Source: Candidatus Cloacimonadota bacterium (GTDB taxonomy: Bacteria; Cloacimonadota; Cloacimonadia; G963667145). From it: 64,000 bases of DNA. The stretch lies in the NCBI GenBank assembly GCA_963676615.1, contig OY781092.1, positions 973,745-1,037,744 of the forward strand, in the 5' to 3' direction. The position numbers were made by a program, and so were the translations under genes. Below are positions 24,429 to 42,046 of this stretch, one piece after another; the first letter of the stretch is position 1, and the number at the start of each line of letters is the position of its first letter. Under the pieces are notes generated by a model, which ran no database searches, was not told where the DNA came from, and was given only the letters and a program-made list of their open reading frames with translations.

Positions 24429-24437
24429 TTTTGTCGT

Positions 24438-25079: not shown

Positions 25080-25184
25080 AAGAATCTCCTTTTTTGTTCT
25101 TTTTTTTATAAAAATTGGAGATTCTTTTTTTGTGTCTAGTTTTTTTTGCTGCAGACACACTTTTTTGGACAGTGCCCACATTTT

Positions 25185-25339: not shown

Positions 25340-25374
25340 CTTTCACGATGGAAGTGCTTTTGCTTTTTTATTTT

Positions 25375-27123
25375 TTACTCTTGTTTGCCCGATAGTTTGT
25401 TGCGTTTTTTGTAGTGCGTATGCAAATATTGGTGAGATTTGTGCGAGAGCGGCTCGCCCAAAAACTCTTTGTAAATTTTGGTAATCATCGGGTTGGTGTG
25501 CGAAGCCCTAAACTGGCAATCTTTGTCCTCTTTGTAGAGCGATTCGCCGCGTCTGGCACGGTCGGCAATGCTAGAGCCATACGGCTGTCCGCCGCCACCA
25601 ACGCATCCGCCAGGGCACGCCATTATCTCGATAAAGTGGTAAGATTTTTTACCCGACTGCACATCTTCGAGCAGCTTTTTGGCGTTGCCAAGCCCGTGCA
25701 CCACAGCCACATTCACCGTCAAAGTCGTCGAACTGTCTTTCAGCGGAATGTCCAAACTCGCTTCCTTAATTCCTTGCATTCCGCGCACAGCTTCCACCTC
25801 CATCTTGCCCAGCTCTTTGCCCGATAAAATTGCATAAGCTGTGCGAATTGCCGCTTCCATCACTCCACCTGTCGCACCAAAAATCGTCCCCGCACCTGTG
25901 TATTGTCCCATAAGCTGGTCGGCTTCCTCTTCTGGCAAATTTTTGAAATCCAAATTTGCCGCCTTTATCATCTTTACAAACTCCCGCACAGTCAGCACAC
26001 AATCGACATCCTGATAGCCAGAAGCGTTCATCTCGGGGCGCTTTGCCTCAAATTTTTTGGCTGTGCAAGGCATAATCGACACGCTGACAATATCTTTGGG
26101 GTCGATTTTCTCTTGCTCGGCAAAATAGGTCTTCACCATCGCGCCGAACATCTGTTGCGGCGATTTGCAAGTAGAAACATTATCGAGCAAATCTGGGAAA
26201 TAGGTCTCCACAAACTTCACCCAGCCAGGCGAACAAGAGGTGATAAGCGGTAAAGTTCCGCCCTCTTTTATCCGCTGAATAAGCTCCGAGCCCTCTTCCA
26301 TTATCGTCAAATCCGCAGCAAAGTTCGTATCGAAAACGCGGTCAAATCCCAGACGACGCAAAGCGGCATACATTTTGCCAACCGTCACTTTCGTCGGATC
26401 CATTCCAAACTCTTCGCCAAGAGCAGCCCGAACCGACGGCGCCTCTTGCACCACCACAATTTTGCTCGGGTCGAACAAAGCGTCTTGCACCTGCTCAATC
26501 TCACTCTTTTCCTTGAGCGCGCCCACAGGACAATACACCGTGCACTGCCCGCAGTTCACGCAAGGACTATCGGCAAGGCTCGTATCAAACGCCGCAGTCA
26601 CCTTGCTGGCAAAGCCACGACCGCTCACACAAAGAGCGTGAACTTTTTGAATATCGTTACACACCGTGATGCAACGCCCGCAATGGATGCACTTGTTGGT
26701 ATCTTTCACAATCGAAGGCCCCAAATTATCCACCTTCGCCCGCTCGAAAATCGGCTCGTAATCCGACTCGGGAATGTCCAAATAGTTGATCAGCTCCTGC
26801 AACTCGCATTTGCCGTTTTGGTCGCAAGTCGGGCATTTCACATCGTGTTCCAACAAAATCAAAGACAAGAGCTCTTTGCGAAGTTTGCGAATTTCTGGCG
26901 AATCGGTAACTATCGACATTCCGTCTGCCACAGGCGTAACACACGCCCGCTTTAGCGGACCCACACCCTCTATCTTCACCACACAAACTCCACAATTTCC
27001 AGTAGGAGTCAAATCTTTGTGATAACACAAACTCGGGATGTAATGTCCGCTCTGCTCAGCCGCTTCCATAATGGTCTGACCAGCCTTAGCCTCTACCGTT
27101 TTTCCGTTTATCGTTATTTGCAT
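25375..27123 (-). CDS. hydA: [FeFe]-hydrogenase catalytic subunit (M3-type, CpI/HydA-like)
   Basis: It has an N-terminal plant-type [2Fe-2S] domain and [4Fe-4S] motifs (CIHCGRCITVC). The H-cluster motifs are L1 SCSPGWV, L2 MPCTAKKFE and L3 EIMACPGGCVGGGGQP. Confidence 0.9.
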   Translation of the reverse strand: MQITINGKTVEAKAGQTIMEAAEQSGHYIPSLCYHKDLTPTGNCGVCVVKIEGVGPLKRACVTPVADGMSIVTDSPEIRKLRKELLSLILLEHDVKCPTCDQNGKCELQELINYLDIPESDYEPIFERAKVDNLGPSIVKDTNKCIHCGRCITVCNDIQKVHALCVSGRGFASKVTAAFDTSLADSPCVNCGQCTVYCPVGALKEKSEIEQVQDALFDPSKIVVVQEAPSVRAALGEEFGMDPTKVTVGKMYAALRRLGFDRVFDTNFAADLTIMEEGSELIQRIKEGGTLPLITSCSPGWVKFVETYFPDLLDNVSTCKSPQQMFGAMVKTYFAEQEKIDPKDIVSVSIMPCTAKKFEAKRPEMNASGYQDVDCVLTVREFVKMIKAANLDFKNLPEEEADQLMGQYTGAGTIFGATGGVMEAAIRTAYAILSGKELGKMEVEAVRGMQGIKEASLDIPLKDSSTTLTVNVAVVHGLGNAKKLLEDVQSGKKSYHFIEIMACPGGCVGGGGQPYGSSIADRARRGESLYKEDKDCQFRASHTNPMITKIYKEFLGEPLSHKSHQYLHTHYKKRNKLSGKQE

Positions 27124-27127
27124 TTTC

Positions 27128-28684
27128 TTACTCTCCTATAAACTTTTCAAATTCATCTCCAAAATATTTGACCATACTGCCAATGGGCATCGCAGGAGAT
27201 TGTCCCAGTGCGCAAAAAGAGGTTTTTTGCATCAAGCTGGAAACTTCGTCCAACCTTTTCACATCAGCGCGGCAGCCTTCTCCAGCCAATATTTTGTCTA
27301 TCAAACCAACCAAAACTTTGCAACCAATCCGACAAGAGCTACATTTTCCACAAGATTCGTGCAAAAAGAAGTTCAAAATAGAACGCAAAACTTTGAGCAT
27401 ATTTGCTTTTTCGCTCATAATCAAAATCGCCCCAGAGCCAAGCACCGCAGACTCTTTGGACAGATTTTCAAAATCGAGCTTAATCTGCAGAAGCTCCTTT
27501 GGCAAAAACATTCCCGCAGCTCCGCCAACCAAAGCGGCTTTGAACTTCTTGTCCTCTTTGAGTCCGCCGCCGTATTTAAAGATAATCTCCGACAAAGTCG
27601 TGCCCATAGGCACCTCTATCAAGCCGGGACTGTTCACATCGCCCAAAATCGTGTAAACCTTTGTTCCGCAAGAGCCAGGCGTGCCAATCTCGGCAAACTT
27701 CGCTCCGCCATTTTCCACAATCTCTGGCAAATTGGAGAGCGTCTCGACATTGTTAACCACCGTCGGTTTGCCCCAAAGTCCGCTCACGCCAGGATAAGGA
27801 GGCTTCGAGCGAGGATTACCTCTGCCGCCCTCCAGCGAATTCAAAAGCGCCGTCTCCTCACCGCAAACATAAGCACCAGCGCCAACTTTGACCATCACAT
27901 CAAAATCGAAACCGCTACCCAAAATATCTTTGCCCAAAAGCCCATACTCTCTGGCTTGCGCAATCGCTTTTTTGAGCCGATTAATGCAAAGCTTATACTC
28001 GCCACGAATGTAGATAAATCCAGTGTCCGCGCCAGCCACAAAACCCGCTATCATCATTCCCTCGAGCAGCTTGTGCGGGTCGCCTTCCATAATCAGCCGA
28101 TCCTTAAAAGTTCCCGCTTCGCCCTCGTCGGCGTTCACGACGATATACTTGTGCTTTTCGTCCAATTTGGCAGTCAGCTCCAGCTTCATTCCCGTGGGAA
28201 ATCCAGCACCGCCACGACCACGCAAATTGGAAGTTTTAATCTCTCGCAAAACCTCGTCTCTGCCCAGCTGCAAAGCTTTTCCCAAAGCTTGATAACCGTC
28301 CACGGCGATATACTCGTCGATAGATTCTGGGTCAATTTTGCCCGAATTTTTAAGCACAATTCGGTGTGAAAAAGCAAAATCAACCTCTTGTTTGGCTGGC
28401 TGACTCAAACTTTTCACAGGTCGCCCTTTAAGGAAATGTTCCAAAACAATCTGCGGAACATCCTCCACGGTGATATTGTGATACAAAAGATTATCGGGAT
28501 AAACCAGAAAATGCACGCCTTTGGACACATAGCCCAGCGTCCCTGTCTCCAGCACACCGACCTCTTTCTCCAAACCGTTTTTCGCCAGCTCGTCGCGCAT
28601 AGCCTGAATGACCGCCTTGACGCCCTTGTCCAGAGTGTGATCGTCAACTACAAAAAGAATGTGAGTTCTATAAAACATTTTCAC
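27128..28684 (-). CDS. NuoF-like flavoprotein subunit with a Cys-less N-terminal thioredoxin-like domain
   Basis: It has the FMN/NADH-site motif GRGGAGFPTGMK and the N3 [4Fe-4S] motif ESCGKCSSCRIGC. The N-terminal roughly 90 aa align with thioredoxin-like [2Fe-2S] domains but lack the Cys ligands. There is no C-terminal ferredoxin domain. Confidence 0.8.
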   Translation of the reverse strand: MKMFYRTHILFVVDDHTLDKGVKAVIQAMRDELAKNGLEKEVGVLETGTLGYVSKGVHFLVYPDNLLYHNITVEDVPQIVLEHFLKGRPVKSLSQPAKQEVDFAFSHRIVLKNSGKIDPESIDEYIAVDGYQALGKALQLGRDEVLREIKTSNLRGRGGAGFPTGMKLELTAKLDEKHKYIVVNADEGEAGTFKDRLIMEGDPHKLLEGMMIAGFVAGADTGFIYIRGEYKLCINRLKKAIAQAREYGLLGKDILGSGFDFDVMVKVGAGAYVCGEETALLNSLEGGRGNPRSKPPYPGVSGLWGKPTVVNNVETLSNLPEIVENGGAKFAEIGTPGSCGTKVYTILGDVNSPGLIEVPMGTTLSEIIFKYGGGLKEDKKFKAALVGGAAGMFLPKELLQIKLDFENLSKESAVLGSGAILIMSEKANMLKVLRSILNFFLHESCGKCSSCRIGCKVLVGLIDKILAGEGCRADVKRLDEVSSLMQKTSFCALGQSPAMPIGSMVKYFGDEFEKFIGE

Positions 28685-29108
28685 CTCCCTGCAGATTTTT
28701 GAGCAACCCCTCCAGCTTCTCTTGGGTCATATTTCCGTAAACTTTATCGTTGACCAGCACCACAGGAGCGTTACCACACACGCCCAGACACTGACAAGCT
28801 TCCAAAGTCACATCGTTCATTTTTTTGGTCTTTTTTTTCAGATAATCAAGCAAATTGTCCGAGCCCTGCACAACGCAATGAGGCGACTGACACACCTTGA
28901 TTACAAACTTTCCTCTGGATTCAAGCGCAAACATCGAATAAAAACTCGCCACAGAATACACCTGATTATAAGGCATCTTCAAATAATGTGCCACCTCTTT
29001 CAGAGCATCAACGCTCAGATGCTGCGTAGGGCTAGCGTCCTGAGCTATATGCAAAATCTGCAAAATATTCTCAGGCTTTGGTGGATATTTCGTAAAATCT
29101 GTCAACAC
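28668..29108 (-). CDS. NuoE-like [2Fe-2S] subunit (HydC/HndA-like)
   Basis: It has the thioredoxin-like [2Fe-2S] Cys pattern: CQSPHCVVQG, then CLGVCGNAP. Confidence 0.8.
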   Translation of the reverse strand: MLTDFTKYPPKPENILQILHIAQDASPTQHLSVDALKEVAHYLKMPYNQVYSVASFYSMFALESRGKFVIKVCQSPHCVVQGSDNLLDYLKKKTKKMNDVTLEACQCLGVCGNAPVVLVNDKVYGNMTQEKLEGLLKNLQGGENVL

Positions 29109-29139
29109 AACCTCCTTTTAGTTTCCACAACTTTCAACA

Positions 29140-30965
29140 TTACAATTCTTCACTAACTTCGCCTTGCCCAGGCAACTTTTTGATCGCTCCCACAGGGCAA
29201 ACCTCCATACAATTTCCGCACTTAACACAATCCGCCTGCGAAATCTCAAACTTCTCCTGGCGACTGCCGTGAATGCTGCTAACTGGGCACTTCTTCGCGC
29301 AAAGCGAGCAGCCCACACACTTGTCCTTATTTATCTGAAAATGCAAAAGATCAGGACAAACAAGCGCAGAACATTTTTTCTCATTTATATGCTCTTCATA
29401 CTCGTTTCGGAAATGTTTAATCGTTGACAACACTGGATTTGGCGCGGTCTGTCCCAAGCCGCACAAAGCGGTTTTCTTGATCACATTGCCCATTCGCTCC
29501 AGCTCTTGCAAATCTTCCATTGTCCCCTTTCCAGAAGTGATTTTTTCCAAAATATTGTGCAAATGCCGAAGTCCAATACGACACGGCGAACACTTGCCGC
29601 ACGACTCTTCCATCGTAAATTCCAAGAAAAATTTGGCAACATTCACCATACATTTGCTATCGTTCATCACAATCACGCCGCCAGAGCCCATCATCGCGCC
29701 CTCGGCAATCAGCGAATCGTAATCGATAGGCACATTCCAATGCTCTTTGGTCAGACAGCCGCCAGAAGGTCCGCCCAGCTGCACAGCCTTAAACTCGCCG
29801 CTGCTCATACCTCCGCCAACTTTATCGATAAGCTCGCCAATCGTCACGCCCATCGGCACTTCCACAAGCCCCGTATTTTTCACATCGCCCGTCAGCGCAA
29901 AAACTTTCGTGCCTTTGCTTTTTTCGGTGCCCATCGCCGCAAACCACTTGCCACCTTTTTCGATAATCGGCGGCACATTCGCCAAAGTCTCTACATTATT
30001 GATGTTCGTCGGCTTGTCCCAAAGTCCGCTAATAGCAGGAAACGGCGGTTTCGACCTCGGATGCCCTCTTCTTCCTTGAATCGACGAAATCAGAGCGGTC
30101 TCCTCTCCGCAAACAAAAGCGCCCGCTCCTGTGCGCACCTCCATATCAAAGCTAAAGCCACTGCCCAAAATATTCTCGCCCAGAAGCCCATACTCACGAG
30201 CCTTCTCAATCGCTAGCTTCACCCGCTCAATCGCCAGGGGATACTCCGCGCGGATATAAAAAAAGCCCTTCGTCGCTCCAATGGCATACGCGGCTATCAT
30301 CATCCCCTCCAGCACCTTGTGCGGATCGCCCTCCAAAACAGACCGATCCATAAAAGCGCCTGGGTCTCCCTCATCTCCGTTACAAATCAAATACTTAACG
30401 CCGTCATCGCTCTTGGCTTTTCGGGCAAATGTCCACTTCAAAAAAGTCGGGAAACCGCCACCGCCACGACCACGCAAGCCAGAAATCTCAATCTCCTTAA
30501 TCACATCCTCGGGGCTCATCGACTCCAGCACCTTCGCCAGCGAGCCGTAGCCGTCAACAGCCACATACTCTTCCAGCGACTCCGGATCGATATAACCGCA
30601 ATACTCCAGCGCAACTTCGTCTGACTCTTGTAAAACGGCACATCCTCCACATTCCGCACAACATTCTCGGCAGCCGAGCCGTCCCTCATCAAAAGCCGCT
30701 CAACCACGCGCCCTTTAACAAAATGCTCCTCGACAACCTCTTTCATATCCTCAGGTTTGAGCTGCTTATAAAAAACGCCCTCGGGATAAATCAGCATCAA
30801 AGGTCCAAAATCGCAAGGTCCCATACAGCCAGTCTCGATGATGTTAACCTCGCTCTCAATCCCAAACTCCCGCACCTGTTTTTGCAGCTCTTGCTTTATC
30901 TTTTTGGCTCCAGCAGAAACACAACCCGAGCCAAAACACAGCAAAACATCGATTCTCTTTAACAT
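29140..30965 (-). CDS. HydB-like NuoF subunit (N-terminal thioredoxin-like [2Fe-2S], NuoF core, C-terminal 2x[4Fe-4S]), interrupted by an apparent frameshift near 30620
   Basis: The track splits it into two ORFs. ORF 30516..30965 is a [2Fe-2S] thioredoxin-like domain (CFGSGC ... CMGPCDFGP). ORF 29140..30564 is the NuoF core (GRGGGGFPT ... SCGKCSPCRIG) plus CVGCSLCAKKCP ... CVKCGNCMEVCP. The NuoF reading frame continues upstream of 30564 without a stop, homologous to the paralogue, but in a different frame from the upstream ORF. The 30564 start of the track ORF is a GTG codon within this continuous frame. Confidence 0.65.
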
Positions 30966-30976
30966 CCTAACCTTCT

Positions 30977-31330
30977 CTAGATTAAAAATTCGCTAATAAC
31001 ATTGCCGTTAACAATATGCTCGCTCACCACTCTTTTCGCCTTCTCGGCGCTCATCTGACAATAAGTCACGCTCTTGCCATCCTTCTGCATCACATCCACC
31101 ACAGGCTCCATACTCGACGCCCCTTTCTCTCCGCTCTGGGTAACGACGACGCCCGAAATATCTCGTTTGGAAATCTCATCCAAAAACGCCCGCATCACCT
31201 CTCGTGCGCCCATAGCAATTCCCGAAGTCCCCATTCCAACGACAATCTTGTATTTGTAGTCCGAATTTCGCAAGTTCATCTTTTTTTGAACTTCTTCCTT
31301 TAACTTTTTCAAATCAGCTAACGATTTCAT
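30977..31330 (-). CDS. Small thioredoxin-like ferredoxin-fold protein lacking the [2Fe-2S] cysteine ligands
   Basis: KIVVGMGTSGIAMGAREV ... VTQSGEKGASSMEPVV aligns with the Cys-containing CFGSGCVSAGAKKI ... ETGCMGPCDFGPLM domain of the adjacent gene. The Cys residues are replaced by Met, Thr, Gly or Ser. Confidence 0.5.
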   Translation of the reverse strand: MKSLADLKKLKEEVQKKMNLRNSDYKYKIVVGMGTSGIAMGAREVMRAFLDEISKRDISGVVVTQSGEKGASSMEPVVDVMQKDGKSVTYCQMSAEKAKRVVSEHIVNGNVISEFLI

Positions 31331-31872
31331 CTATCCTCCAATTTTCCAATCTGCTGGCAAAGAATCTCTTCCATAAAATTTCTTATCTCTGGCTGATCCA
31401 AAGGCACGCCATCTAGCTCCTTCTTCACCAGCCGAGTATCAAAACAATCTTTTTCTCCATTCACACTGCTACGCAAAACAAAATCAACTTTTGGATGCGC
31501 CACAATGCAGGTAACCATCGTCAAGGCGACATCGCCAAGCGGCAAAGCGTCGATGCTGGAAACCACAAAACTCGCCTTCAAAATAGTGCCTTTGCCCAGC
31601 TCGGACTGCAAATCAAAACTACCGCCCGACAAAGTGGCACTCTGGGCAAACAGCGGAATGCCCAAACCGACCTTCTTTTTGCGAAACGCCTTGCTCGTAT
31701 AAAAAGGGTCAACCGCCGCCTTCAGCGTCTGCTCGTCCATCCCTTTGCCATTATCCTCCACGCTCAAACTCAAAACATCCTCTTTGCGCGAAAAACAACA
31801 CTCAATCAAAGTAGCACCAGCACTCACCGAATTTTGGAGAATATCTAAAAGGTGTAAAGATATATCTTCCAT
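31327..31872 (-). CDS. GHKL/HATPase_c-type ATP-binding protein (anti-sigma-factor / serine-kinase-like)
   Basis: It has the N-box/G1 motif SVEDNGKGMDE and G2 GLGIPLFAQSA. At 181 aa it has no His-kinase dimerisation domain. Confidence 0.7.
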   Translation of the reverse strand: MEDISLHLLDILQNSVSAGATLIECCFSRKEDVLSLSVEDNGKGMDEQTLKAAVDPFYTSKAFRKKKVGLGIPLFAQSATLSGGSFDLQSELGKGTILKASFVVSSIDALPLGDVALTMVTCIVAHPKVDFVLRSSVNGEKDCFDTRLVKKELDGVPLDQPEIRNFMEEILCQQIGKLEDR

Positions 31873-31905
31873 AAATTTGCGACTCCCTTATCTGCTCACC
31901 AAAAA

Positions 31906-32382
31906 CTAATACTTACTCAAAATCTCTTTAATCTGCCCTTTAGAAGCAATTTTACCATAAGTATCTTCGCCGATAACCACCACTGGCGCAAGCGAACACG
32001 CACCCACGCAGCGCACCGACGACAGCGAGAACTTGCCATCCTGAGTCGTTTGCCCAAGGCTCACGCCAAGCTCCTGCTCAAACATCTTAATCACATTCGC
32101 AGCGCCCTTCACATAACACGCAGTTCCCGTGCAAATATTGATAACGACCTCGCCGCGCGGCTTCATCGAAAAGAAATTATAAAAAGTCACCACGCCGTAG
32201 ATTTTGTTCACAGGCAAATCCATCTGCTCGGCAACAAACGCCTGCACCTCTTTCGGCAAATAGCCAAACAACCTTTGCGCCTCACGCAAAACCTCGATCA
32301 AAGGGTCTCTCAGACCTTTTTTCTCTTGGATAATCTCCTTCAGCTCCGCATAAAGTTTATTCTCACACTTCTCCACATTCAC
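31906..32382 (-). CDS. NuoE-like [2Fe-2S] subunit (HydC/HoxE-like)
   Basis: Its Cys motifs are CTGTACYVKG and CVGACSLAPV. Confidence 0.8.
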   Translation of the reverse strand: MNVEKCENKLYAELKEIIQEKKGLRDPLIEVLREAQRLFGYLPKEVQAFVAEQMDLPVNKIYGVVTFYNFFSMKPRGEVVINICTGTACYVKGAANVIKMFEQELGVSLGQTTQDGKFSLSSVRCVGACSLAPVVVIGEDTYGKIASKGQIKEILSKY

Positions 32383-32389
32383 CCCCTAC

Positions 32390-33103
32390 TTAAATCGTTT
32401 TTGTCTCAAACTCATTTTTTTGTAAAGCTATTTTTAAACTTTCAAAATTCAGCTCGTCCAGACTATACTCCGTATATCTTTTCCCAAAATCTTTTCGATA
32501 ATGAGCGTCGGAATTTCGCACCAGCGGCAACCCGTATTTTTCCCATGGCGCAAAATCTCCCACAACCTCCAGCGCATCAAAATCCACATCCTGCGGCAAA
32601 AATCCCAGCTGCGACTTTGTGCTAAAGCTATCGGCGTCCACATGCGAGGCGACCAAAAAGCCGCCATACTGCGCAACTTTGGCAGAAGTCGTCTGCAAAT
32701 CCCAGCTCACCGAATTCAGCAAAAGCTTGCCCTCAAACCCAAGCACCATCTCGTTTTCGTCGATAAGCACCTGATCGCCAAAAAAACCTTTGCGATTTTG
32801 AATGTCAGGCAGCGCCCGATACAGCTCCGCATCAAAAGCCGCCGCAGTCTTGCAGTCGGGAAAATACGCCAAAAGGTGCACCTCCAAACTGGTTTGAATC
32901 TCCACGCCGTAAATAAAATGGATGCCAAATTTTTGGGCAATACTCGCATAAGCCAAAGAGTTCGCCAGACTATTATGCTCCGTGATAGAGAGCATCCCAA
33001 AGCCCAAATCTCTGGCTTTTTCAAACAAAAGCGAGGGCGACATCGAATAATCGCCACACGGCGACAAAACAGAATGCAAATGCAAATCGGCCTTGCAAAC
33101 CAT
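32390..33103 (-). CDS. PHP-domain (polymerase/histidinol-phosphatase-like) metal-dependent phosphoesterase
   Basis: It begins ADLHLHSVLSPCGD and has SITEHNSL, the PHP His-rich motifs. Confidence 0.7.
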   Translation of the reverse strand: MVCKADLHLHSVLSPCGDYSMSPSLLFEKARDLGFGMLSITEHNSLANSLAYASIAQKFGIHFIYGVEIQTSLEVHLLAYFPDCKTAAAFDAELYRALPDIQNRKGFFGDQVLIDENEMVLGFEGKLLLNSVSWDLQTTSAKVAQYGGFLVASHVDADSFSTKSQLGFLPQDVDFDALEVVGDFAPWEKYGLPLVRNSDAHYRKDFGKRYTEYSLDELNFESLKIALQKNEFETKTI

Positions 33104-34723
33104 CTATTGCACCGCCACCAACTTATACAAAATCCCCGAAATCTGAAAAGAGTTATAAGGACTGCTCACAAGCACAATCCCCTCTTCGTTTGCCTTCTCA
33201 ATCACCTCTGGCGTCGGCATCTTATTCTTGGCAAAAATTATCGCATCAATCTCCAAGAGCGACGCCACAGCAATCGAATTTTGATGCTGCATAATCGTCA
33301 CCCACACTTGGCTATCGCCAGCCGAAGCCATCACATCCGAAAGCAAATCGCCCGCATAAACGCTGCTAACTCTCACGCTCGACAAATCTTTCTCCTTCGT
33401 CAAAAGTTTGCCGCCAATATACTCAATCAACTTCGCCAAAGACATCTCTTTTTTCTCCTGCAAATTAAAAACACAATCCGAAAACTTCGCCTTTCCACTC
33501 ACAATCTCCTTCGCCAAAACCTCGCAAGTCGGACACCCGCAAATCCCGCAATTTTTACCCGGCAAAAGCTTTTTAATGTCCTCATACTTTTTCATTTTGG
33601 CGATTTTTTCTTTAATCGACAAATTATCCACCTCGCGCGGCACAGGCGTAATCTCATTTTTTATCTCGAACTCTTTGTTTTTGAACAACTTATAAAAAAG
33701 CTCTTTGTCGATTTTTTCGAACTTCACATCCGAAGAAGCGATACGATTTGCCGCAATAAACGGATTTTCCACATTCAAATCTCCGCCGACACAACCGTTG
33801 GTGCAACTGCGCAGCACCACATAATCGTAATAATCCAGCTGACCGCCCTCGATTTTGGACAAAATATCTTTCGCACCCTTAAAACCGCTAACCGCCAAAG
33901 TCTTAAAATTGCTCTCCTTCACCTGATTGCCCTCGGAAATATAAATCCCCCAATTCTCGTGATTTATAACGCCACCCGAGTTTTGCACATCCTTTTTCTC
34001 GTCCTGCTTCTGATTATAACAAATATTCATAATCCGATTGTAAACATCGCGCATCGCCAAAGCGCCGTCCTGAAAAGATTTATCTTGCCCAACAGGATTT
34101 TTGAAAGCGGTAATTTGCGACGAACACGGAGCCACCGAAAAAATTCCAATCTCGTCTGGCTTGAACCCTTTTTTTTCTGCCAAATAGTGCCGATAGTAGG
34201 CGCTCAAAATCGCCACAGAAGACTCCAGCGGCACAATATGCTCCAGCAGCGACGGGTACTTAACCCTTATCAGCCGCACAATCGCAGGACAATTCGACGA
34301 AATCAAAGGGCGAATTTTGGCATCGTTCAACTTTTGCGCAAAAATCGGCGCCATCACTCCAGTAATCATATTTTCATCGATCACCTTGTCGAAACCCAGC
34401 TGCAAAAGGGCGTCCGTCGCCACCGCATAATCGATTTTGGGCGGAAGCTGCCCGATAAAAACATTCGACAAAAGCGCCACACGATATTTAAACCTAGAAT
34501 CGTGCAAGAGCTCATCGAAATCGTCGTAAACGCTTTTGATGGCTCCCACAGGGCAAATTTTGATGCACTGTCCGCAGCTGATGCACTTGTGCTGATACAG
34601 CTCGACCTTGCCGTCGCGGAGCCTGATGGCAGACACTGGGCAAACCCGAATACACCTCGTGCAACCGATGCACTTCTCCTTATCCTCCTGCACCGAGCCG
34701 CTAAAATTCACAATATTTTCCAT
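33104..34723 (-). CDS. Sensory [FeFe]-hydrogenase-like protein (HydS/HfsB-type) with a C-terminal DRTGG-like domain
   Basis: It has an N-terminal 2x[4Fe-4S] (CIGCTRCIRVCP, CISCGQCIKICP). The H-cluster-like motifs are degenerate: SSNCPAIV (L1 with one Cys), APCSSQ (L2) and CTNGCVGG (L3). An extra CGICGCPTC motif is present. The C-terminal roughly 110 aa (AGDLLSDVMA ... VLVSSP) resemble the adjacent DRTGG protein. Confidence 0.7.
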   Translation of the reverse strand: MENIVNFSGSVQEDKEKCIGCTRCIRVCPVSAIRLRDGKVELYQHKCISCGQCIKICPVGAIKSVYDDFDELLHDSRFKYRVALLSNVFIGQLPPKIDYAVATDALLQLGFDKVIDENMITGVMAPIFAQKLNDAKIRPLISSNCPAIVRLIRVKYPSLLEHIVPLESSVAILSAYYRHYLAEKKGFKPDEIGIFSVAPCSSQITAFKNPVGQDKSFQDGALAMRDVYNRIMNICYNQKQDEKKDVQNSGGVINHENWGIYISEGNQVKESNFKTLAVSGFKGAKDILSKIEGGQLDYYDYVVLRSCTNGCVGGDLNVENPFIAANRIASSDVKFEKIDKELFYKLFKNKEFEIKNEITPVPREVDNLSIKEKIAKMKKYEDIKKLLPGKNCGICGCPTCEVLAKEIVSGKAKFSDCVFNLQEKKEMSLAKLIEYIGGKLLTKEKDLSSVRVSSVYAGDLLSDVMASAGDSQVWVTIMQHQNSIAVASLLEIDAIIFAKNKMPTPEVIEKANEEGIVLVSSPYNSFQISGILYKLVAVQ

Positions 34724-34738
34724 CTTCTACTTTTTTCC

Positions 34739-35218
34739 TTAAAAAAACACGACCAAATCTAGCTCCGTATTTCCCGCAGAATAAAGCCTCATAATATCCA
34801 CATTATCTTTGATATTCGGCAGTCCCATACCAGCACCAAAACCCATTGAACGCGCCAAATCGTCTGCCGTGGAATAGCCCGGCTGCATCGCTTTTTCGAT
34901 ATCGGCAATGCCAGGACCATTATCGACAAACCGCAGATGCACAAACTCTGGATAAATTCCCACCAGCATCTTGCCACCCTTGGAATGCGCCACCACATTT
35001 ATCTCCGCCTCATAGCTCGCCACAGCAAAACGCCGCAAAGAGCCCGTATCGATGCCCAAACTTTTCAGCTTCTTCTTAACTTTCGTCGTCGCTTTTCCCG
35101 ATTCGACAAAATCTTTGGCTTTAATCTCAAAATCGAAATTTATCGCTGGCTTATCCAGCTCGTTCAAAAAAACTTCTGGCTCAACCTGTGCATCTTTGCT
35201 AAACTCAAAACTACTCAT
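34739..35218 (-). CDS. GHKL/HATPase_c-type ATP-binding protein (anti-sigma regulatory factor-like)
   Basis: It has VDNGPGIADIEK and GFGAGMGLPNI. At 159 aa it is a second paralogue within the same locus. Confidence 0.7.
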   Translation of the reverse strand: MSSFEFSKDAQVEPEVFLNELDKPAINFDFEIKAKDFVESGKATTKVKKKLKSLGIDTGSLRRFAVASYEAEINVVAHSKGGKMLVGIYPEFVHLRFVDNGPGIADIEKAMQPGYSTADDLARSMGFGAGMGLPNIKDNVDIMRLYSAGNTELDLVVFF

Positions 35219-35576
35219 CGATACTCACCTTTATCTCAAGAGGCGCAAGACCGCCCTTATACGAAAAAGCGCAAGCCTCAAAAAGCGACATCTTCGTGCA
35301 CAAAACTGGCAAATCGTGATCTTCTGCCAGCTGCAAAATTTCCGCCGTCGGCTTCTTCCCTCGCACAAACACAACCGCTTGCATATCAACCATTTCCGCC
35401 ACTCGAATAATCTGATGATTAACAAGCCCCGTAAAAAGCACCGCCGAATCTTTCACGCACATCAAAATATCGCTAATCAAATCTGACGCCGCGCCGCAAC
35501 TCACATCATAATCCAAATGCTTGGGCGAACTCAGCAACTTGCCGTCCACCAACTCTAAAAGTTCTTTCAATTTCAT
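35211..35576 (-). CDS. DRTGG-domain protein
   Basis: A 121-aa protein with CGAASDLISDILM ... AVLFTGL ... AVVFVRGKKP, the DRTGG domain pattern. It overlaps the next gene by 8 nt. Confidence 0.6.
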   Translation of the reverse strand: MKLKELLELVDGKLLSSPKHLDYDVSCGAASDLISDILMCVKDSAVLFTGLVNHQIIRVAEMVDMQAVVFVRGKKPTAEILQLAEDHDLPVLCTKMSLFEACAFSYKGGLAPLEIKVSIDE

Positions 35577-37931
35577 CTAATGCACCCTTATATATTGCTT
35601 GAGCGCTTCCAAATCTTTCTTCAGCTGCGCCATCAACTCCGCCTGCGAAGCGAACTTTTTCTCCGCCCGCAAAAACCGCAAAAACTCCACTTTCACCTCT
35701 CGGCCGTAAATATTTTTATTAAATTTATAAAGATAATTTTCGATCGTCTTCTTCCGCTCATCGCTACGCACAGTAGGCGCAAAGCCGATATTCGTAAGGC
35801 CATAATAGCCCTTGTCGCCGATTTTGGTATGCGTGATATATACCCCTTCGGCTGGATAAATTTTGAACTCCTCTTTGGGGCTTAAATTCAAAGTCGGGAA
35901 GCCAAGACTTCCGCCAATTTTGCGACCTTTCTCCACAGTTCCCACAACCGAATAGTTCCGCGAAAGATAGCGCCTGATGCCGTTAATCTCGCCTTTTTTT
36001 ATCTTCTCTCGAATGAGTTTGCTGCAAACAATCTCGCCGCTCATAATCAAAGGATCAACCAGACGCACCTTGATGCCATAAGGCTTGCCCAGCTTCATCA
36101 AAAGCCGATAATCGCCCTCTTTGCCTTTACCAAATCTGGTGTCGTGTCCACAAACAATCTCGCGAATATGCAACTTCTCCAGCAAAATCTTCTTGAAAAA
36201 CTCCTCGGCCGTAAAATGCGCGACCTCATCAAAATCCAGATACAAAATCGAATGCACCCCAAATTTGTGAAAAAGCAAATGCTCCTTATGTTTCCGCTCC
36301 AAAATCATATACGGTTCTATCGGGCGGTTGTCCATTTTCAAAAAATGCTCCCGAGTATGAGCGCGATAAGTCAGCACCAAAGCCTCTCCGCCCGTATCCG
36401 TCGCACGAGAATACAACCTGTTCAAAAGTTTCGAATGCCCAAAATGCAACCCCTCAAAATTGCCAATGGCAACAATCGGATACTTATACCGCAAGCTCGT
36501 CTGCTGGGTAATATCCACGATGCTCCCTTTCGGTGTATAGGGAATATCCTGGCTGGCAATCACGATTTTGAACATCTTCGACAAATTCGCAAAACTTTCG
36601 ACCTTCTTAATTTCGTCAGTTGAAAACTCAATCTTTTTCAAGTTTCGGAACCTGCCCAAAAAAGTCAAATCGACAAAAGATTGCAAAAACTCTGGCGTCT
36701 CGTCGTAAAAGCTCAACCGCTCCAGCTTTGTGCAATTTTGCAATCCCGATAAGTTGGTCAAATTTTCGGCTTGTATCCGAAAAAAGTTACTATTCACCAG
36801 CTCCCGCAGCTCGCTAGAATTTGGCAAAAACAAAGAGTAGCCGTTGTCCAGCTGCACATTAAACGCTCGCTTCCACTGCGGCTCCAGATTATTCCACCAC
36901 TGCCGCAAAAGCTTTTTAGAGTCAAAAAACGACGCATTTTGAGTTGCAAAAAGTTTCCGCAATCGCAAAAATTCCCTTCGCTTTTCCTTCCGCAATCTCC
37001 ATTTTTCCCAAAATTTGAACGAAACCATACTCACTAAAATCAAAATCAGCAATCCCAAAACTCCACCAATGATTAAAATCTTAGTATTCCGCTTCTCTGT
37101 AAAAAGCGCGCTCACCCTCTGTTTTTCTGACTCCGGCAAAGTTTTGCTATCCTCAGAGAACAAAAAAACTTTCAAACTTTTAAGCTTTTCCACGCCATCC
37201 AAATTGGTTAATTTATTTTTGAAAATAAAAATCTTTTCCAAATCTTTCGCATTCTCAAGACCTTTTATGTTGGCAATCTCGTTGTTGTGCGCCAACAAAA
37301 TCTTCAACTTCGGACTGCTACTCAGCGGCTCCAGCGACGAAATATTGTTGTGATTGATCGAGAGTTCCTCCAAAAGCGGCTTGTTCGCCAACGGCTCTAT
37401 CGACGAGATAAAGTTCCGATGCACATAAACCCTCTTCAGATTTTGCAAATCCTCAAGCCCTCTCAAATCTTGCAAATCGTTAAAATCAGCCCGCAAATAC
37501 TCTAGCTTCTTCAAATTCCGCAAGCGCCACAGCGACTGAATTCGGTTGTCACTTAGCTTCAACTCTTTTAGGTTCACCAAATTTTCAATGCCGTTCAAAT
37601 CAGCAATCTGGTTGTAAGAGCAATTGACATTTTCCAAATGATCTAGCTGACTCAATCCGCTGACATCCGTGAGGTTATGCCCATACAAAAACAAAGTTTT
37701 TCGCTTCAGCAAACTTTCCAAAAACACATCTTTTGGTTTTTGCACAGTTTTTCCTAACCCCAAAACCCTATTGAACGCCAGCTTCCACTGATAATCCAGA
37801 CCGTTCCACCATATCTCCCGTTTTTCGGGGGTATCAAATTTTCGACTCATCTCCACTTTTTGAGCAGCTGCCCACAAAAACCCTTGTAAAACCACAACTA
37901 TAAATAAAATTTTCAACAATTTTTTCATCAC
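35577..37931 (-). CDS. ribF: Fusion ORF: signal peptide + leucine-rich-repeat domains with a mid-protein TM helix, fused in frame to bifunctional riboflavin kinase/FMN adenylyltransferase (RibF)
   Basis: There are about 22-residue LRR units (NLxxLxxLxLxxNxIxxL) in two blocks around the TM helix ILIIGGVLGLLILILVSMV. The C-terminal roughly 310 aa are RibF (VAIGNFEGLHFGH ... riboflavin-kinase motifs GEIVCSKLIREKI, PTLNL). The 784 codons contain no stop. A possible internal GTG start for RibF, with an AAGGGAG SD, lies at the complement of 36515-36517. Confidence 0.7.
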   Translation of the reverse strand: MMKKLLKILFIVVVLQGFLWAAAQKVEMSRKFDTPEKREIWWNGLDYQWKLAFNRVLGLGKTVQKPKDVFLESLLKRKTLFLYGHNLTDVSGLSQLDHLENVNCSYNQIADLNGIENLVNLKELKLSDNRIQSLWRLRNLKKLEYLRADFNDLQDLRGLEDLQNLKRVYVHRNFISSIEPLANKPLLEELSINHNNISSLEPLSSSPKLKILLAHNNEIANIKGLENAKDLEKIFIFKNKLTNLDGVEKLKSLKVFLFSEDSKTLPESEKQRVSALFTEKRNTKILIIGGVLGLLILILVSMVSFKFWEKWRLRKEKRREFLRLRKLFATQNASFFDSKKLLRQWWNNLEPQWKRAFNVQLDNGYSLFLPNSSELRELVNSNFFRIQAENLTNLSGLQNCTKLERLSFYDETPEFLQSFVDLTFLGRFRNLKKIEFSTDEIKKVESFANLSKMFKIVIASQDIPYTPKGSIVDITQQTSLRYKYPIVAIGNFEGLHFGHSKLLNRLYSRATDTGGEALVLTYRAHTREHFLKMDNRPIEPYMILERKHKEHLLFHKFGVHSILYLDFDEVAHFTAEEFFKKILLEKLHIREIVCGHDTRFGKGKEGDYRLLMKLGKPYGIKVRLVDPLIMSGEIVCSKLIREKIKKGEINGIRRYLSRNYSVVGTVEKGRKIGGSLGFPTLNLSPKEEFKIYPAEGVYITHTKIGDKGYYGLTNIGFAPTVRSDERKKTIENYLYKFNKNIYGREVKVEFLRFLRAEKKFASQAELMAQLKKDLEALKQYIRVH

Positions 37932-37940
37932 TTTCCCTAA

Positions 37941-38801
37941 TCAAAACACTATTTTTGGCTGAACTTTTCCTTGTTCAGTCCAAGCTACACCCACAAATTC
38001 TTCGTTGTGGTAAATTTTTGTAAAGCCATTTTTTGCTCTTTCTTCTTCCCAAAAATTGCCGTGACAAAATCTTTCAAACAGAGCGTCGTCAATCTGCAAA
38101 GCGGGAAAATCTTGCAGCAAAACATCCGCCGAAAGCACTCGGGAACGCAAAAATTCGCCACTAGTTTGCTGATCAATCTGCACGCAATCGTCTATCCCAA
38201 AACCTGCACACTCCACACGCCGCAGCGCTTGCGTCGTGCCCACGACACCCAAAAGCTGGCTAATATCCTGACTGAGCGTCCGAATATATGTCCCTTTGGA
38301 AACTTTGGCTTCGTAGCTCATGAGCCTTCCGTCAAAATCTTTTATCGTAAAATTGGAAATTTTTATCGCTCGCGGTTTCATCGCAGGGGAAGCTCCCGCT
38401 CTTGCCAAGGCGTAAGCCCTTTTGCCATCGACTTTTATCGCCGAATAAATCGGAGGAATTTGCGAGGTCATCCCCAAAACTTTTTCCGCCAAATCGGCGC
38501 TCAAACCCTTGGGCAAATCGCTGATTGCAATCACCTTGCCCGTGATGTCCGCCGTGTCAGTTTTTTGCCCGAACAAAATCGTCGCCTGATAGCGTTTGTC
38601 CTGCACCGACACGAACCTCGCAAGGCGTGTGGCTCTGCCCAGCAACACCACCAGCACGCCCGTGGCAAAATTGTCCAGCGTTCCGCAATGCCCCACTTTT
38701 TTTATGCCCAAAATTCGCCGTATTTGCGCGATAACCCCAAACGAGCTGATTCCCGCGGGTTTATCCACCAAAAGCACGCCACTCAAAGAGCTTGCCTGCA
38801 T
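37941..38801 (-). CDS. truB: tRNA pseudouridine(55) synthase
   Basis: It has GVLLVDKPAGISSF ... GHCGTLD (catalytic Asp). The start is chosen at an internal Met. Confidence 0.85.
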   Translation of the reverse strand: MQASSLSGVLLVDKPAGISSFGVIAQIRRILGIKKVGHCGTLDNFATGVLVVLLGRATRLARFVSVQDKRYQATILFGQKTDTADITGKVIAISDLPKGLSADLAEKVLGMTSQIPPIYSAIKVDGKRAYALARAGASPAMKPRAIKISNFTIKDFDGRLMSYEAKVSKGTYIRTLSQDISQLLGVVGTTQALRRVECAGFGIDDCVQIDQQTSGEFLRSRVLSADVLLQDFPALQIDDALFERFCHGNFWEEERAKNGFTKIYHNEEFVGVAWTEQGKVQPKIVF

Positions 38802-39730
38802 AGCGCCAACACTTCCTTTTCGATTTCGTGCCGCTTGCCACAAACCTCACAACCAGCAGCCAAGCGGTGACCACCTCCGCCAAATTTTTGGCAAACAGCC
38901 TGCACATCCGCCACTTTCGAGCGAAAACTGAGCTTATACACGCCCGGTTCCTTCTGCTTAAACATCACAATTATCTGATAATCGCCCAGCTGCTTGAGCC
39001 TGCTGACGGCAGACGGCAACTCCTCATACGCAAATCCAAACCGTTCCTGTAGCTCCAAATCGCTATGAGCAAACACAATTTTTCCGCTCTCAAACTCTTT
39101 CAAATCGGCATAAACCGCCGCCAAATACCGAAACTCGGAAACTTTCATCTGGCAAAAAAAATCTTCGTAAGCTTGCCCAGCGTTCAATCCAAAATCGAGC
39201 AACGCCGCACAAACCGCAAAACATTCAGCGTCCACATTCCGATTCTGAAAACCGTCTGTGTCGCCCAAAATCGTATAGTAAATCGCCCGCGCAAACCTCG
39301 CCCGCTCCGTCTGCGGCAAAGCTTCGACCAACTTCTGACAATGCCGAAAAATCAAAATCCCAGCGCTGGCGGCACAAGGCTCAATAATCTCCTGCGCAGT
39401 CGGCAATTTGTCCGCGCCAACTTGATGATGATCGATCACAAAAATCTCTTTGTCGAAATCGCCGACAAACTTTTCCCACTTGCCAAGGCGCGACTTTTGG
39501 TGCGCATCCACCACCACCAAAGCGTCGAAATTGCAGGAGCTGATATCCACCTGCTCATAGCCAAACTCCAAAAACGCCAAACTTTGCGGCGGAGCCTCCA
39601 GCATCACCTTCGCCTTGCTTTTGCCCAGCACCATCTGCAAAGCAAAACAAGAGCCCAAAGCGTCCGCATCTGGATTTTGATGCGTAAATATCCCTATTTG
39701 CTTATATTTCAACAGATTATCGACAATCAT
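38783..39730 (-). CDS. nrnA: Bifunctional oligoribonuclease / pAp phosphatase NrnA (DHH-DHHA1)
   Basis: It has the DHH motifs HQNPDADALGS and DHH, and a DHHA1 GGGH near the C-terminus. The start is chosen at an internal Met. Confidence 0.8.
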   Translation of the reverse strand: MIVDNLLKYKQIGIFTHQNPDADALGSCFALQMVLGKSKAKVMLEAPPQSLAFLEFGYEQVDISSCNFDALVVVDAHQKSRLGKWEKFVGDFDKEIFVIDHHQVGADKLPTAQEIIEPCAASAGILIFRHCQKLVEALPQTERARFARAIYYTILGDTDGFQNRNVDAECFAVCAALLDFGLNAGQAYEDFFCQMKVSEFRYLAAVYADLKEFESGKIVFAHSDLELQERFGFAYEELPSAVSRLKQLGDYQIIVMFKQKEPGVYKLSFRSKVADVQAVCQKFGGGGHRLAAGCEVCGKRHEIEKEVLALCRQAL

Positions 39731-40283: not shown

Positions 40284-40286
40284 TCC

Positions 40287-41878: not shown

Positions 41879-42046
41879 AATCTAACCCACTTTAATCTAT
41901 AAATTTCGCCCAAAAAATCAAGCAAAACCAACATTTAGCAAATTGACCAAGTGTCAAAAAAAATCAAAATTTACTTGCTCAAAAAAGCGTTTTTTTTTCT
42001 TTGCGAAAAAAAATGAACTACTAACTTCATAAAAAACAAAGGAAGT

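Follow-up and report, generated by a model that had tools for sequence, protein, structure and literature searches.

A group D hydrogenase homologue encoded by a Candidatus Cloacimonadota bacterium may act as the receptor in a conserved regulatory complex of five proteins. The complex would comprise a stand-alone DRTGG protein (DRTGG1), a GHKL ATPase or Ser kinase, the hydrogenase homologue itself (HydS), a second DRTGG domain (DRTGG2) and a PHP phosphoesterase, and presumably it would control the adjacent genes of a bifurcating-type hydrogenase. We give this reading slightly less than an even chance (about 45%). Fermenting bacteria with [FeFe] hydrogenases must sense the partial pressure of H2, and the route that they use is an open question. 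It has been noted since 2010–2012 that group D genes lie upstream of bifurcating hydrogenases and beside kinase-like genes. The literature lists such genes (M2e), upstream of bifurcating hydrogenases, in Thermoanaerobacter, Caldicellulosiruptor and Clostridium thermocellum. This makes the question relevant to the engineering of H2 and ethanol yields in these organisms. The latest work on the model enzyme of the group considers the identification of interaction partners as the critical next step.

The window, i.e. the whole stretch of 64,000 nucleotides analysed here, carries the module on its minus strand. From 35576 down to 32390 the order is DRTGG1, GHKL1, a 539-aa [FeFe]-hydrogenase homologue and PHP. 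Directly downstream comes a hydrogenase operon of the electron-bifurcating type, with a second GHKL gene (GHKL2) inside it:

35211..35576, minus strand: DRTGG1, stand-alone protein of 121 aa (Pfam DRTGG, E 1e-4)
34739..35218, minus strand: GHKL1, stand-alone protein of 159 aa, SpoIIAB/RsbW/RsbT-like, resembling anti-sigma-type Ser kinases (HATPase_c, E 6e-5)
33104..34723, minus strand: HydS-DRTGG2, hydrogenase part residues 1-~425, DRTGG2 part residues ~427-539 (Fe_hyd_lg_C, 9.8e-26; two Fer4 motifs; PF04060 FeS, 1.9e-11; DRTGG, residues 432-532)
34529..34693, minus strand: N-terminal 2x[4Fe-4S] ferredoxin-like domain of HydS, residues ~11-65 (Pfam Fer4 family)
33782..34447, minus strand: H-domain of HydS, residues 93-314 (Fe_hyd_lg_C, E 9.8e-26)
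33473..33550, minus strand: C-terminal [4Fe-4S] motif of HydS, Cx2Cx4Cx16C (PF04060 FeS, E 1.9e-11)
33107..33448, minus strand: DRTGG2 domain of HydS, residues 426-539 (DRTGG, 27.1 bits when scanned alone)
32390..33103, minus strand: PHP phosphoesterase, 237 aa (PHP, E 1.1e-8, and PHP_C)
25375..32382, minus strand: downstream HydABC-type hydrogenase genes, whole block (Pfam and NCBIfam, also for the genes below where nothing else is given)
31906..32382, minus strand: NuoE1
31327..31872, minus strand: GHKL2, 181 aa, small and histidine-kinase-like, within the structural operon of the hydrogenase (HATPase_c, E 1.3e-11)
30977..31330, minus strand: 2Fe-2S ferredoxin-like protein
29140..30965, minus strand: NuoF1, frameshifted
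28668..29108, minus strand: NuoE2
27128..28684, minus strand: NuoF2
25375..27123, minus strand: HydA (NF040763, 851 bits; A. woodii and T. kivui HydA1, E 1e-189 and 1e-178)

DRTGG1 and GHKL1 overlap by 8 nt, and the downstream hydrogenase genes are separated by 0–33 nt when they do not overlap. The module and the bifurcating-type hydrogenase genes are probably co-transcribed. A previous sequence-only reading had listed a HydS-like protein, a stand-alone DRTGG protein, two small GHKL ATPases and a PHP enzyme, and all of these genes are indeed there, on the minus strand. The second GHKL gene (31872..31327), however, lies outside the region that it had assigned to the module, beyond a NuoE gene.

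Judged by its sequence, the 539-aa protein is a putative sensory [FeFe] hydrogenase of group D (M2e, TamHydS-type), a family already described, which the sequence-only reading did not recognise. This placement rests on its architecture and on relatives of about 425 aa, TamHydS (WP_418365830.1) being compared through its published description, outside the alignment. These closest relatives of the full-length core combine 2x[4Fe-4S], an H-domain and PF04060, without PAS. Pfam likewise matched no PAS domain, the mark of group C (M2f), in the 539-aa protein. The AF2 model has a hydrogenase fold (pLDDT 90.3, pTM 0.81). Residue statistics were obtained from 195 relatives, with alignments to group A structures used to match positions. 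All eight cysteines of the N-terminal clusters (C18/21/24/28 and C47/50/53/57) are invariant in the alignment, and so are those of the C-terminal cluster (C392, C395, C400 and C417) in the 195 sequences. The H-cluster ligands C145, C200, C307 and C311 align with C300, C355, C499 and C503 of CpI, and 191–195 of the relatives keep them. The proton-relay cysteine is gone: N144 stands at the position of CpI C299, which is N, F or A across the 195 relatives. At the positions of the framing methionines we find A198 for M353 and R305 for M497, which fits the published description of group D. Further, Q203 replaces K358 and V303 the P3 Glu, a pair of changes in the clade that calls for caution about binding of the [2Fe] subcluster. 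Four motifs had been singled out in the earlier reading (SSNCP, APCSS, CTNGCVGG and CGICGCPTC) and all are found in the translation. The H-cluster motifs deserve to be called degenerate in their second-sphere residues, but not in their four ligand cysteines. CGICGCPTC, which had been taken for an extra motif, belongs to the known Cx2Cx4Cx16C cluster of the family, described in the literature as defining groups C and D. Only C397 is extra there, a cysteine seen in 18 of the 195 relatives.

Could HydS be a second, slow catalytic hydrogenase or an electron-transfer subunit, with small neighbours that are structural or maturation accessories and no signalling at all? TamHydS turns over H2, and the four H-cluster cysteines as well as both N-terminal clusters are kept in the window protein, all of which would suit such a role. 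Yet the proton pathway of group A is missing, this clade has other residues in place of K358 and of the P3 Glu, the neighbours come from families of the signalling type (SpoIIAB/RsbW-like ATPase, DRTGG regulatory domain), and a complete catalytic hydrogenase operon lies downstream in most loci. We hold this explanation to be quite unlikely. The sequence-only reading had accepted that it would fall if HydS were simply a second catalytic hydrogenase; what we see is four retained cysteines, but loss of the proton-relay cysteine and of other catalytic second-sphere residues, as in the slow TamHydS.

The idea that a slow hydrogenase serves to perceive H2 has a counterpart in the regulatory [NiFe] hydrogenase HoxBC of Ralstonia eutropha, which controls a kinase and, via this kinase, hydrogenase genes (HoxJ/HoxA). 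The metal centre and the protein families are unrelated, however, and the HoxBC system uses a histidine kinase that carries a PAS-like domain and a response regulator, neither of which is found at the window locus. Closer to the present case, the group C proteins (M2f: HydS of Thermotoga maritima and of Ruminococcus albus, HfsB of Thermoanaerobacterium) have the same core, the same C-terminal cluster motif and a degenerate proton pathway. Group C HydS has been proposed to sense H2 and to signal to an adjacent Ser/Thr kinase. Group C proteins end in a PAS domain, whereas the window protein ends in a DRTGG domain and is accompanied by DRTGG and PHP partners. The closest likeness is with TamHydS of Thermoanaerobacter mathranii, a group D enzyme of low turnover that changes its secondary structure upon H2 addition and whose partners are unidentified. 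Both proteins have the N-terminal 2x[4Fe-4S], an H-domain with four cysteine ligands and the C-terminal Cx2Cx4Cx16C motif, and both lack PAS and C299. H2 does not reduce the C-terminal cluster of TamHydS, so that one of the signalling routes that had been proposed falls away. The window protein differs by Asn at the C299 position (Ala in TamHydS), Arg at that of M497 (Leu in TamHydS), Gln at that of K358, Val for the P3 Glu, and by a fused DRTGG domain of 110 residues.

This domain is a real DRTGG domain according to both Pfam and the AF2 model, as the sequence-only reading had rightly seen when it described the C-terminus as DRTGG-like and not PAS. Scanned alone it reaches 27.1 bits, above the PF07085 cut-off of 25.2. 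Its model (pLDDT 93) best matches the fold of AF1212, a Pfam DRTGG protein (2ioj, TM 0.82/0.78, rmsd 2.5 Å), then that of the CBS-PPase DRTGG domain 3l31 (TM 0.78). That reading had overlooked, by contrast, that the C-terminus is a gene fusion with a downstream gene that is normally separate. Of 73 related loci, spread over several phyla, 62 encode DRTGG2 as a gene of its own; 43 of 45 stand-alone orthologues match DRTGG (E<=1e-3), and M427 of the fusion is the retained ancestral start methionine. Residues Y456, D459, L461, S462, T476 and N482 are invariant in the family. Full-length HydS-DRTGG2 proteins make only seven clusters at 90% identity, the other close matches being all about 425 aa long. 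The 150 best representative clusters hold eleven HydS-DRTGG2 fusions, two DRTGG1-HydS and one GHKL-HydS; HydS-DRTGG2 occurs in about 7% of group D lineages. The fused forms are dispersed over the tree, with unfused nearest neighbours, and this shows that HydS has recurrently and independently become fused with DRTGG2, with DRTGG1 and with the GHKL protein. The fusions thereby nominate physical partners of a kind that the TamHydS literature calls unknown. They are evidence that the proteins are linked physically or functionally, not that they signal, and they would fit obligate structural subunits of a second hydrogenase equally well. The fused protein, the five-gene module and the DRTGG1 and GHKL fusions nevertheless provide concrete, testable candidates, and a natural single-chain HydS-DRTGG could serve structural work.

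The same set of genes is found well beyond the window. Synteny was followed at 80 loci, and the order DRTGG1–GHKL–HydS–DRTGG2–PHP is strongly conserved, independent gene calls agreeing with it. DRTGG1 lies upstream in 75 of 76 loci and GHKL1 is present in as many (75/76). DRTGG2 is found in 63 of 73, and PHP in 60 of 73, solely where DRTGG2 occurs. Median intergenic gaps range from -0.5 to 13 nt. The earlier reading had asked for a check of co-occurrence, and would have been abandoned had the partner genes been unrelated in other genomes: they accompany the hydrogenase homologue in 60–75 of about 75 loci, which belong to Cloacimonadota, Bacteroidales, Clostridia, Halanaerobiales and Symbiobacterium, and they do so in conserved order.

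DRTGG1 and the C-terminal domain of HydS are paralogues (hhalign 99.8%, E 4.5e-28). The DRTGG1 of the window scores 22.5 bits, under the Pfam cut-off of 25.2; 42 of 46 orthologues match PF07085 (E<=1e-3). D32, S35, D36, T49, G50, R72 and K74 are near-invariant in the family, and both hydrogenase-linked DRTGG families keep an SDL[LM]SDV[LM] motif and an invariant threonine. The fold is the one known from the DRTGG domain in CBS-pyrophosphatase (3l2b/3l31) and from AF1212 (2ioj), with TM 0.70–0.82, some 15–17% identity and no attached CBS domains. In CBS-PPase, DRTGG is a dimerising regulatory domain with known DRTGG-DRTGG' contacts. A phospho-acceptor role of DRTGG domains was not reported in the literature that we searched.

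GHKL1 resembles the small ATP-binding kinases of partner switching. Taken alone, the window protein is a weak match (23.8 bits for HATPase_c; 33 bits for TIGR01925, whose cut-off is 135), while 44 of 47 orthologues match PF13581 (HATPase_c_2) and the family profile matches SpoIIAB (E 7e-12) and RsbW (3e-4). Its ATP-binding boxes are invariant (N-box E70xExN74, G1 D99xGPG, G2 G126FGAGMGLPN). As in the SpoIIAB-SpoIIAA-SpoIIE and RsbW-RsbV-RsbU modules, the gene of a small stand-alone SpoIIAB/RsbW-like protein adjoins that of a small alpha/beta protein in which one helix N-terminus has an invariant serine, and the module also encodes a hydrolase that might reverse phosphorylation. The likeness stops at the nature of the parts: the small partner folds as DRTGG here and as STAS there, the hydrolase is PHP instead of PP2C (SpoIIE/RsbU), and no counterpart was found for the sigma factor which serves as the alternative partner. 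Among the module genes and their conserved neighbours we found no conserved STAS, PP2C, sigma factor, transcription factor or other DNA-binding protein. A partner-switch-like circuit is plausible for the module, and the partner-switching or phospho-relay mechanism that the sequence-only reading had suggested is to be taken as an inference. It is more doubtful that DRTGG1, the SpoIIAB-like GHKL kinase, DRTGG2 and PHP make up an undescribed type of partner switching, with DRTGG for STAS and PHP for PP2C, wired to an [FeFe]-hydrogenase H2 receptor whose group D interaction partners the fusions reveal.

Were HydS the receptor of the complex, events might unfold as follows. Its conformation would shift when H2 binds at the slow H-cluster, and the change would be relayed through the region of the C-terminal [4Fe-4S] cluster and its helix to the attached DRTGG2. 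As DRTGG domains dimerise in known structures, DRTGG2 could then alter its pairing with its paralogue DRTGG1, so that the GHKL kinase would be sequestered or set free, as in anti-sigma partner switching. A serine that is invariant at a helix N-terminus, S35 of DRTGG1 and S462 of the fusion, is the candidate phospho-acceptor, and the PHP enzyme is a candidate for the reset. The output might lie in hydABC transcription, or the HydABC enzyme might be controlled directly through GHKL2. Should the circuit work in this way, partner switching would be wired here in a new manner.

The PHP enzyme also lends itself to another explanation: it might be a nuclease or nucleotidase acting on RNA or on a nucleotide messenger, the DRTGG proteins being nucleotide-responsive adaptors, without any protein phosphorylation. 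The protein scores 36.1 bits against a Pfam cut-off of 26.4. H8, H10, C16, H43, E68, H76, H154, D199 and H201 are invariant in its family, apparently a complete set of metal ligands, with C16 near the place of the usual third histidine; an LSPC motif is invariant too. The best-characterised relatives of the protein are nucleases and nucleotidases rather than protein phosphatases, which the sequence-only reading had not recognised: the family profile matches Endonuclease Q (E 9e-18) and TrpH/RNase AM-type phosphoesterases (TrpH-like 3e0f, 6e-13; RNase AM, 1.6e-9), together with pAp phosphatase; a PHP-type protein phosphatase (YwqE/CpsB) was considered, and no such chain appeared among PDB matches at E<=0.01. 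The strict co-occurrence of PHP with DRTGG2 goes in the same direction, as does the fact that the response of DRTGG-containing CBS-PPases to diadenosine polyphosphates requires the DRTGG domain. However, all these nuclease and nucleotidase matches fall far under the family cut-offs, the nucleotides of CBS-PPase sit in its CBS domains and not in DRTGG, the module has no nucleotide cyclase or synthetase, and the conserved SpoIIAB-like kinase would be left without explanation. Nucleotide or RNA signalling seems to us very unlikely.

The output of the module leaves room for a last alternative, control at the level of the enzyme: the HydS/DRTGG/GHKL/PHP complex would dock on HydABC, phosphorylate it or modify it, possibly via GHKL2, tuning its activity to H2 pressure without any transcription factor. 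The lack of a conserved DNA-binding protein or sigma factor beside the module speaks for it, and so does the usual location of the module within the same tight string of genes as hydABC. Where the sequence extends 7.5 kb or more downstream, as it does at 48 loci, HydA is found there in 30 but not in the other 18, and in the 13 of these that were inspected unrelated genes follow the module, which argues against control of this kind. Purified HydABC(D) preparations are not known to include kinase-like subunits, again a point against it. On balance we regard this mode of control as unlikely. Another argument for it is GHKL2, which is conserved among the structural genes, downstream of the module in 32 of the 48 loci whose sequence reaches far enough and immediately after PHP in Bacteroidales. 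D10, N14, D40xGxG44 and G69xG71 are invariant in its 52 orthologues.

The genes of the module and those of the hydrogenase operon that comes after it lie on one strand (minus), in tight packing. Read along that strand, they are:

Genes of the module and of the downstream hydrogenase operon (window positions)
35576..35211, minus strand: DRTGG1, 121 aa, confirmed by Pfam
35218..34739, minus strand: GHKL1, 159 aa, overlapping DRTGG1 by 8 nt, confirmed by Pfam
34723..33104, minus strand: HydS, the [FeFe]-hydrogenase homologue, 539 aa, confirmed by Pfam
33103..32390, minus strand: PHP, 237 aa, its first base directly after the hydrogenase stop, confirmed by Pfam
directly downstream of PHP, minus strand: NuoE1, first gene of the hydrogenase operon
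31872..31327, minus strand: GHKL2, confirmed by Pfam
downstream of GHKL2, minus strand, in order: a small 2Fe-2S ferredoxin-like protein, NuoF1, NuoE2, NuoF2
27123..25375, minus strand: HydA, last of the hydrogenase operon genes

The gene content that a sequence-only reading had proposed is borne out, every assignment being confirmed by Pfam. Both of the GHKL genes which it placed between 32390 and 35576 exist, with GHKL2 falling outside this interval. Within HydS, Pfam finds two Fer4 motifs, Fe_hyd_lg_C (E 9.8e-26), the PF04060 'FeS' domain (E 1.9e-11) and a DRTGG match at residues 432-532, weak when the full-length protein is scanned. Counts in a promoter and terminator consensus scan of positions 24900-42000 were no higher than in shuffled sequence.

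This arrangement is widespread. ORFs were called in 80 related loci and labelled with the window's proteins, the counts referring to loci with enough flanking DNA. The order DRTGG1–GHKL1–HydS–DRTGG2–PHP recurs in Cloacimonadota, Bacteroidales, many Clostridia, Halanaerobiales and Symbiobacterium. GHKL1 and DRTGG1 are each found in 75/76 loci, DRTGG2 in 63/73 and PHP in 60/73, and no locus has PHP without DRTGG2. The median gap between successive genes is -0.5 to 13 nt, figures biased downwards because every ORF was started at its earliest possible start codon. The identical order is given for one more locus (L081) by independent gene calls from public sources, which come with precomputed Pfam annotation. 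Co-occurrence of the partner genes with HydS, on which the idea of a module depends, thus holds for 60-75 of about 75 loci, in several phyla.

In the window, DRTGG2 is the C-terminal domain of HydS (residues 426-539). In 62/73 loci with enough downstream DNA these residues have their homologue in an ORF of its own, about 110 aa long and located a few bases after HydS. A search for full-length relatives over 5.8 billion proteins returned only seven clusters covering the whole 539-aa query (70-100% identity, 534-542 aa), all other close matches being of about 425 aa and ending after the C-terminal cluster. The best genomic relative belongs to a Candidatus Cloacimonadales chromosome, with 79% identity. 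The C-terminal domain of HydS is a fused copy of the neighbouring DRTGG2 gene. An assembly artefact was considered and rejected: there are seven full-length clusters, at least four of them on contigs of chromosome scale (1.55-1.59 Mb), and the ancestral start methionine of DRTGG2 is kept in frame at the junction (M427). In another assembly a 132-aa protein (P0121; ENA contig, 4640 bp), with 100% identity to the fused domain, was called separately; probably this is a fragment, or else a gene call from an internal start.

That this C-terminus is DRTGG-like, with no PAS domain, had been read from the sequence and is now confirmed. When only the domain is scanned, its Pfam DRTGG score lies above the threshold (27.1 bits against 25.2), and 43/45 stand-alone DRTGG2 orthologues match DRTGG too. 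Its AlphaFold2 model (pLDDT 93) matches AF1212 best (2ioj, TM 0.82/0.78), followed by the CBS-pyrophosphatase DRTGG domain and the HPr-kinase N-domain. The full-length model (pLDDT 90.3, pTM 0.81) has the hydrogenase fold; Foldseek matched it to group A hydrogenases only, with no group C or D structure among the matches.

Similar events took place elsewhere in the family. When 1.84 billion cluster representatives were scanned exhaustively with HMMER, 214 members came out at E<1e-30. The best 150 of these 214 include 11 C-terminal DRTGG2 fusions (about 30% identity to the window protein), two proteins with an N-terminal DRTGG1-type domain (P0141, P0187) and one with an N-terminal GHKL1-type domain (P0189; PF13581, above cut-off). 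Fused forms lie scattered over a rough neighbour-joining tree and their nearest neighbours are almost always unfused; fusion therefore took place repeatedly. Such a pattern is classic Rosetta-stone evidence for joint action of HydS, GHKL1 and the two DRTGG proteins, and no pointer to what they do. A Symbiobacterium MAG also carries a 546-aa HydS-DRTGG2 (L014, 2291-3931), and another relative, P0232, has an unexplained C-terminal extension of 150 residues with a weak zinc-ribbon match.

The HydS family and its general genomic setting were already known. That M2e genes lie close to kinases and to bifurcating hydrogenases was remarked on in 2012, and the genome paper of Halanaerobium hydrogeniformans lists the gene order of the module, unanalysed. 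Literature searches combining DRTGG with hydrogenase, and M2e with anti-sigma or PHP, found no mechanistic description of the module and no connection between DRTGG and hydrogenases. New with respect to this literature are the architecture in which HydS and DRTGG are fused, the five-gene module as defined here, with its PHP enzyme and two DRTGG paralogues, and the recurrent fusions that nominate partners of HydS.

What kind of hydrogenase is HydS? Residue equivalences, given in CpI numbering, were taken from its alignment with group A structures and with 195 relatives. The four cysteines that hold the H-cluster (CpI C300, C355, C499 and C503) are C145, C200, C307 and C311 in the window, and are kept in 191-195 of the 195 relatives. 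The motifs had been described as degenerate. Loss of the H-cluster, as a meaning of this word, is ruled out for the cysteine ligands, all four being present; what stands is the replacement of second-sphere residues (M353 by A198, K358 by Q203, M497 by R305, and the P3-motif Glu by V303) and of the proton-relay cysteine (C299 by N144). The C299 position is N in 91, F in 53 and A in 30 of the 195 relatives, while the P3 position divides the sampled family into 97 Glu and 93 Val. Judged from these residues, the change of K358 to Q leaves [2Fe] binding by the window protein in doubt.

The string CGICGCPTC, previously noted as an extra motif, is present as part of a Cx2Cx4Cx16C pattern (C392, C395, C400, C417) invariant in the HydS family, which the literature gives as the C-terminal [4Fe-4S] site that marks groups C and D. 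Only C397 is additional, and 18/195 relatives have it. A Pfam scan found no PAS domain in HydS. With these features, which are those published for group D, HydS is a group D (M2e) putative sensory hydrogenase. The absence of PAS, the Cx2Cx4Cx16C site and the lost proton-relay cysteine of group A are common to it and to TamHydS, the type member of group D, an enzyme of low turnover that is missing the group A proton pathway. Its suspected sensory role is based on its location near kinase-like genes and bifurcating hydrogenases. The sequence-only reading would have yielded to a simple second catalytic hydrogenase if all ligands were retained. Literally, for the cysteines, they are; this alternative is still disfavoured because of the second-sphere losses and the biochemistry of the family.

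The partners agree with the families first assigned to them (stand-alone DRTGG, small anti-sigma or Ser-kinase-like GHKL ATPases, PHP). DRTGG1 and DRTGG2 are paralogues (hhalign 99.8%, E 4.5e-28) with a common SDL[LM]SDV[LM] motif in which one Asp and one Ser are invariant. The model places this Ser, S35 in DRTGG1 and S462 in the fusion, in the first turn of a helix following a strand; a Thr is also invariant (T49 and T476). In the regulatory region of CBS-pyrophosphatase, DRTGG domains make dimer contacts. GHKL1 of the window, taken alone, is weakly classifiable. Its orthologues match PF13581 in 44/47 cases, their N, G1 and G2 boxes are invariant, and the family profile matches SpoIIAB over nearly its whole length (E 7e-12) and RsbW (3e-4); relatives go by the public names 'anti-sigma regulatory factor (Ser/Thr kinase)' or 'RsbT'. 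By its profile the family is clearly SpoIIAB/RsbW-like. PHP has an invariant, apparently complete metal-ligand set. Its family profile comes closest to Endonuclease Q (E 9e-18), TrpH-like 3e0f, RNase AM and pAp phosphatase, and matched no PHP-type protein phosphatase; action on a nucleotide or RNA is a real rival to a role in protein dephosphorylation.

The best-supported reading makes the module an H2-responsive regulatory complex, with the slow H-cluster of HydS as its receptor. An H2-induced conformational change is reported for TamHydS. In HydS, such a change would pass via the C-terminal cluster and helix region to DRTGG2, altering its pairing with DRTGG1, and this might shift how available or how active the SpoIIAB-like GHKL1 is; as candidates, the invariant DRTGG Ser would be the phospho-site and PHP a reset enzyme. 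The C-terminal cluster of TamHydS is not reduced by H2, which argues against a purely redox relay and is compatible with a conformational one. A resemblance to partner switching had been proposed. Unlike such modules, the locus lacks STAS, PP2C and a sigma factor, and because of this it may work like them and is not a member. By analogy, a partner switch built on DRTGG and PHP, with an [FeFe] H2 receptor to drive it, is possible, if rather doubtful.

The output could be transcriptional control of hydABC, or the HydABC enzyme could be controlled directly, GHKL2 perhaps being the link. A HydABC-type operon, usually with GHKL2, comes after the module in 30/48 loci, and no HydA was found downstream in the remaining 18/48. 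Around the 13 HydA-less modules inspected, the flanking genes are unrelated and no conserved regulator appears among those scanned. In place of a transcription or sigma factor, the neighbours in loci without hydABC are only an amidohydrolase, an ABC-3 permease, SPOR, ValRS and C_GCAxxG_C_C.

HydA of the window is a canonical bifurcating-type enzyme (851 bits against NF040763; E 1e-189 and 1e-178 against HydA1 of A. woodii and T. kivui).

The same protein (25375-27123, minus) has TSCSPGW in place of TSCCPGW, hence Ser at the position of the CpI ligand C300; the identical string in the A. woodii HydA1 structure 7q4v makes this a known natural variant. The HydB-like NuoF1 gene (29140-30965, minus) is split into ORFs of 149 and 474 aa around 30614, by a 1-nt deletion in comparison with the Cloacimonadales relative L001, whose counterpart is a single 607-aa ORF; it is either a pseudogene or an assembly error. 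The second NuoE/NuoF pair (28668-29108, 27128-28684) is intact. Two pairs per operon are found in Cloacimonadota (L001, L002, L004, L005, L009 and the window, 27128-32382), the second NuoF being without the C-terminal 2x[4Fe-4S] domain. In Bacteroidales and Clostridia the loci have a single pair, and in Bacteroidales NuoE comes after HydA.

Directly downstream of hydA, a Mutator-family transposase (23910-25181, minus) is split into two ORFs of 247 aa (profile positions 11-223) and 172 aa (228-376), probably a decayed insertion sequence. A 753-aa ORF (32501-34762, plus) antisense to PHP and HydS is regarded as a mechanical effect and no gene; the GC skew of its strand, strong and constant at about -0.3, probably keeps the frame open. 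Finally, the stop codon of a 784-aa protein (35577-37931, minus) lies directly against the start of DRTGG1. This protein has leucine-rich repeats at its N-terminus and an FAD synthetase/riboflavin kinase (RibF) at its C-terminus, and its translation also shows a hydrophobic stretch. This architecture is unusual for RibF, and the protein has the same length in L001 (4778-7132).
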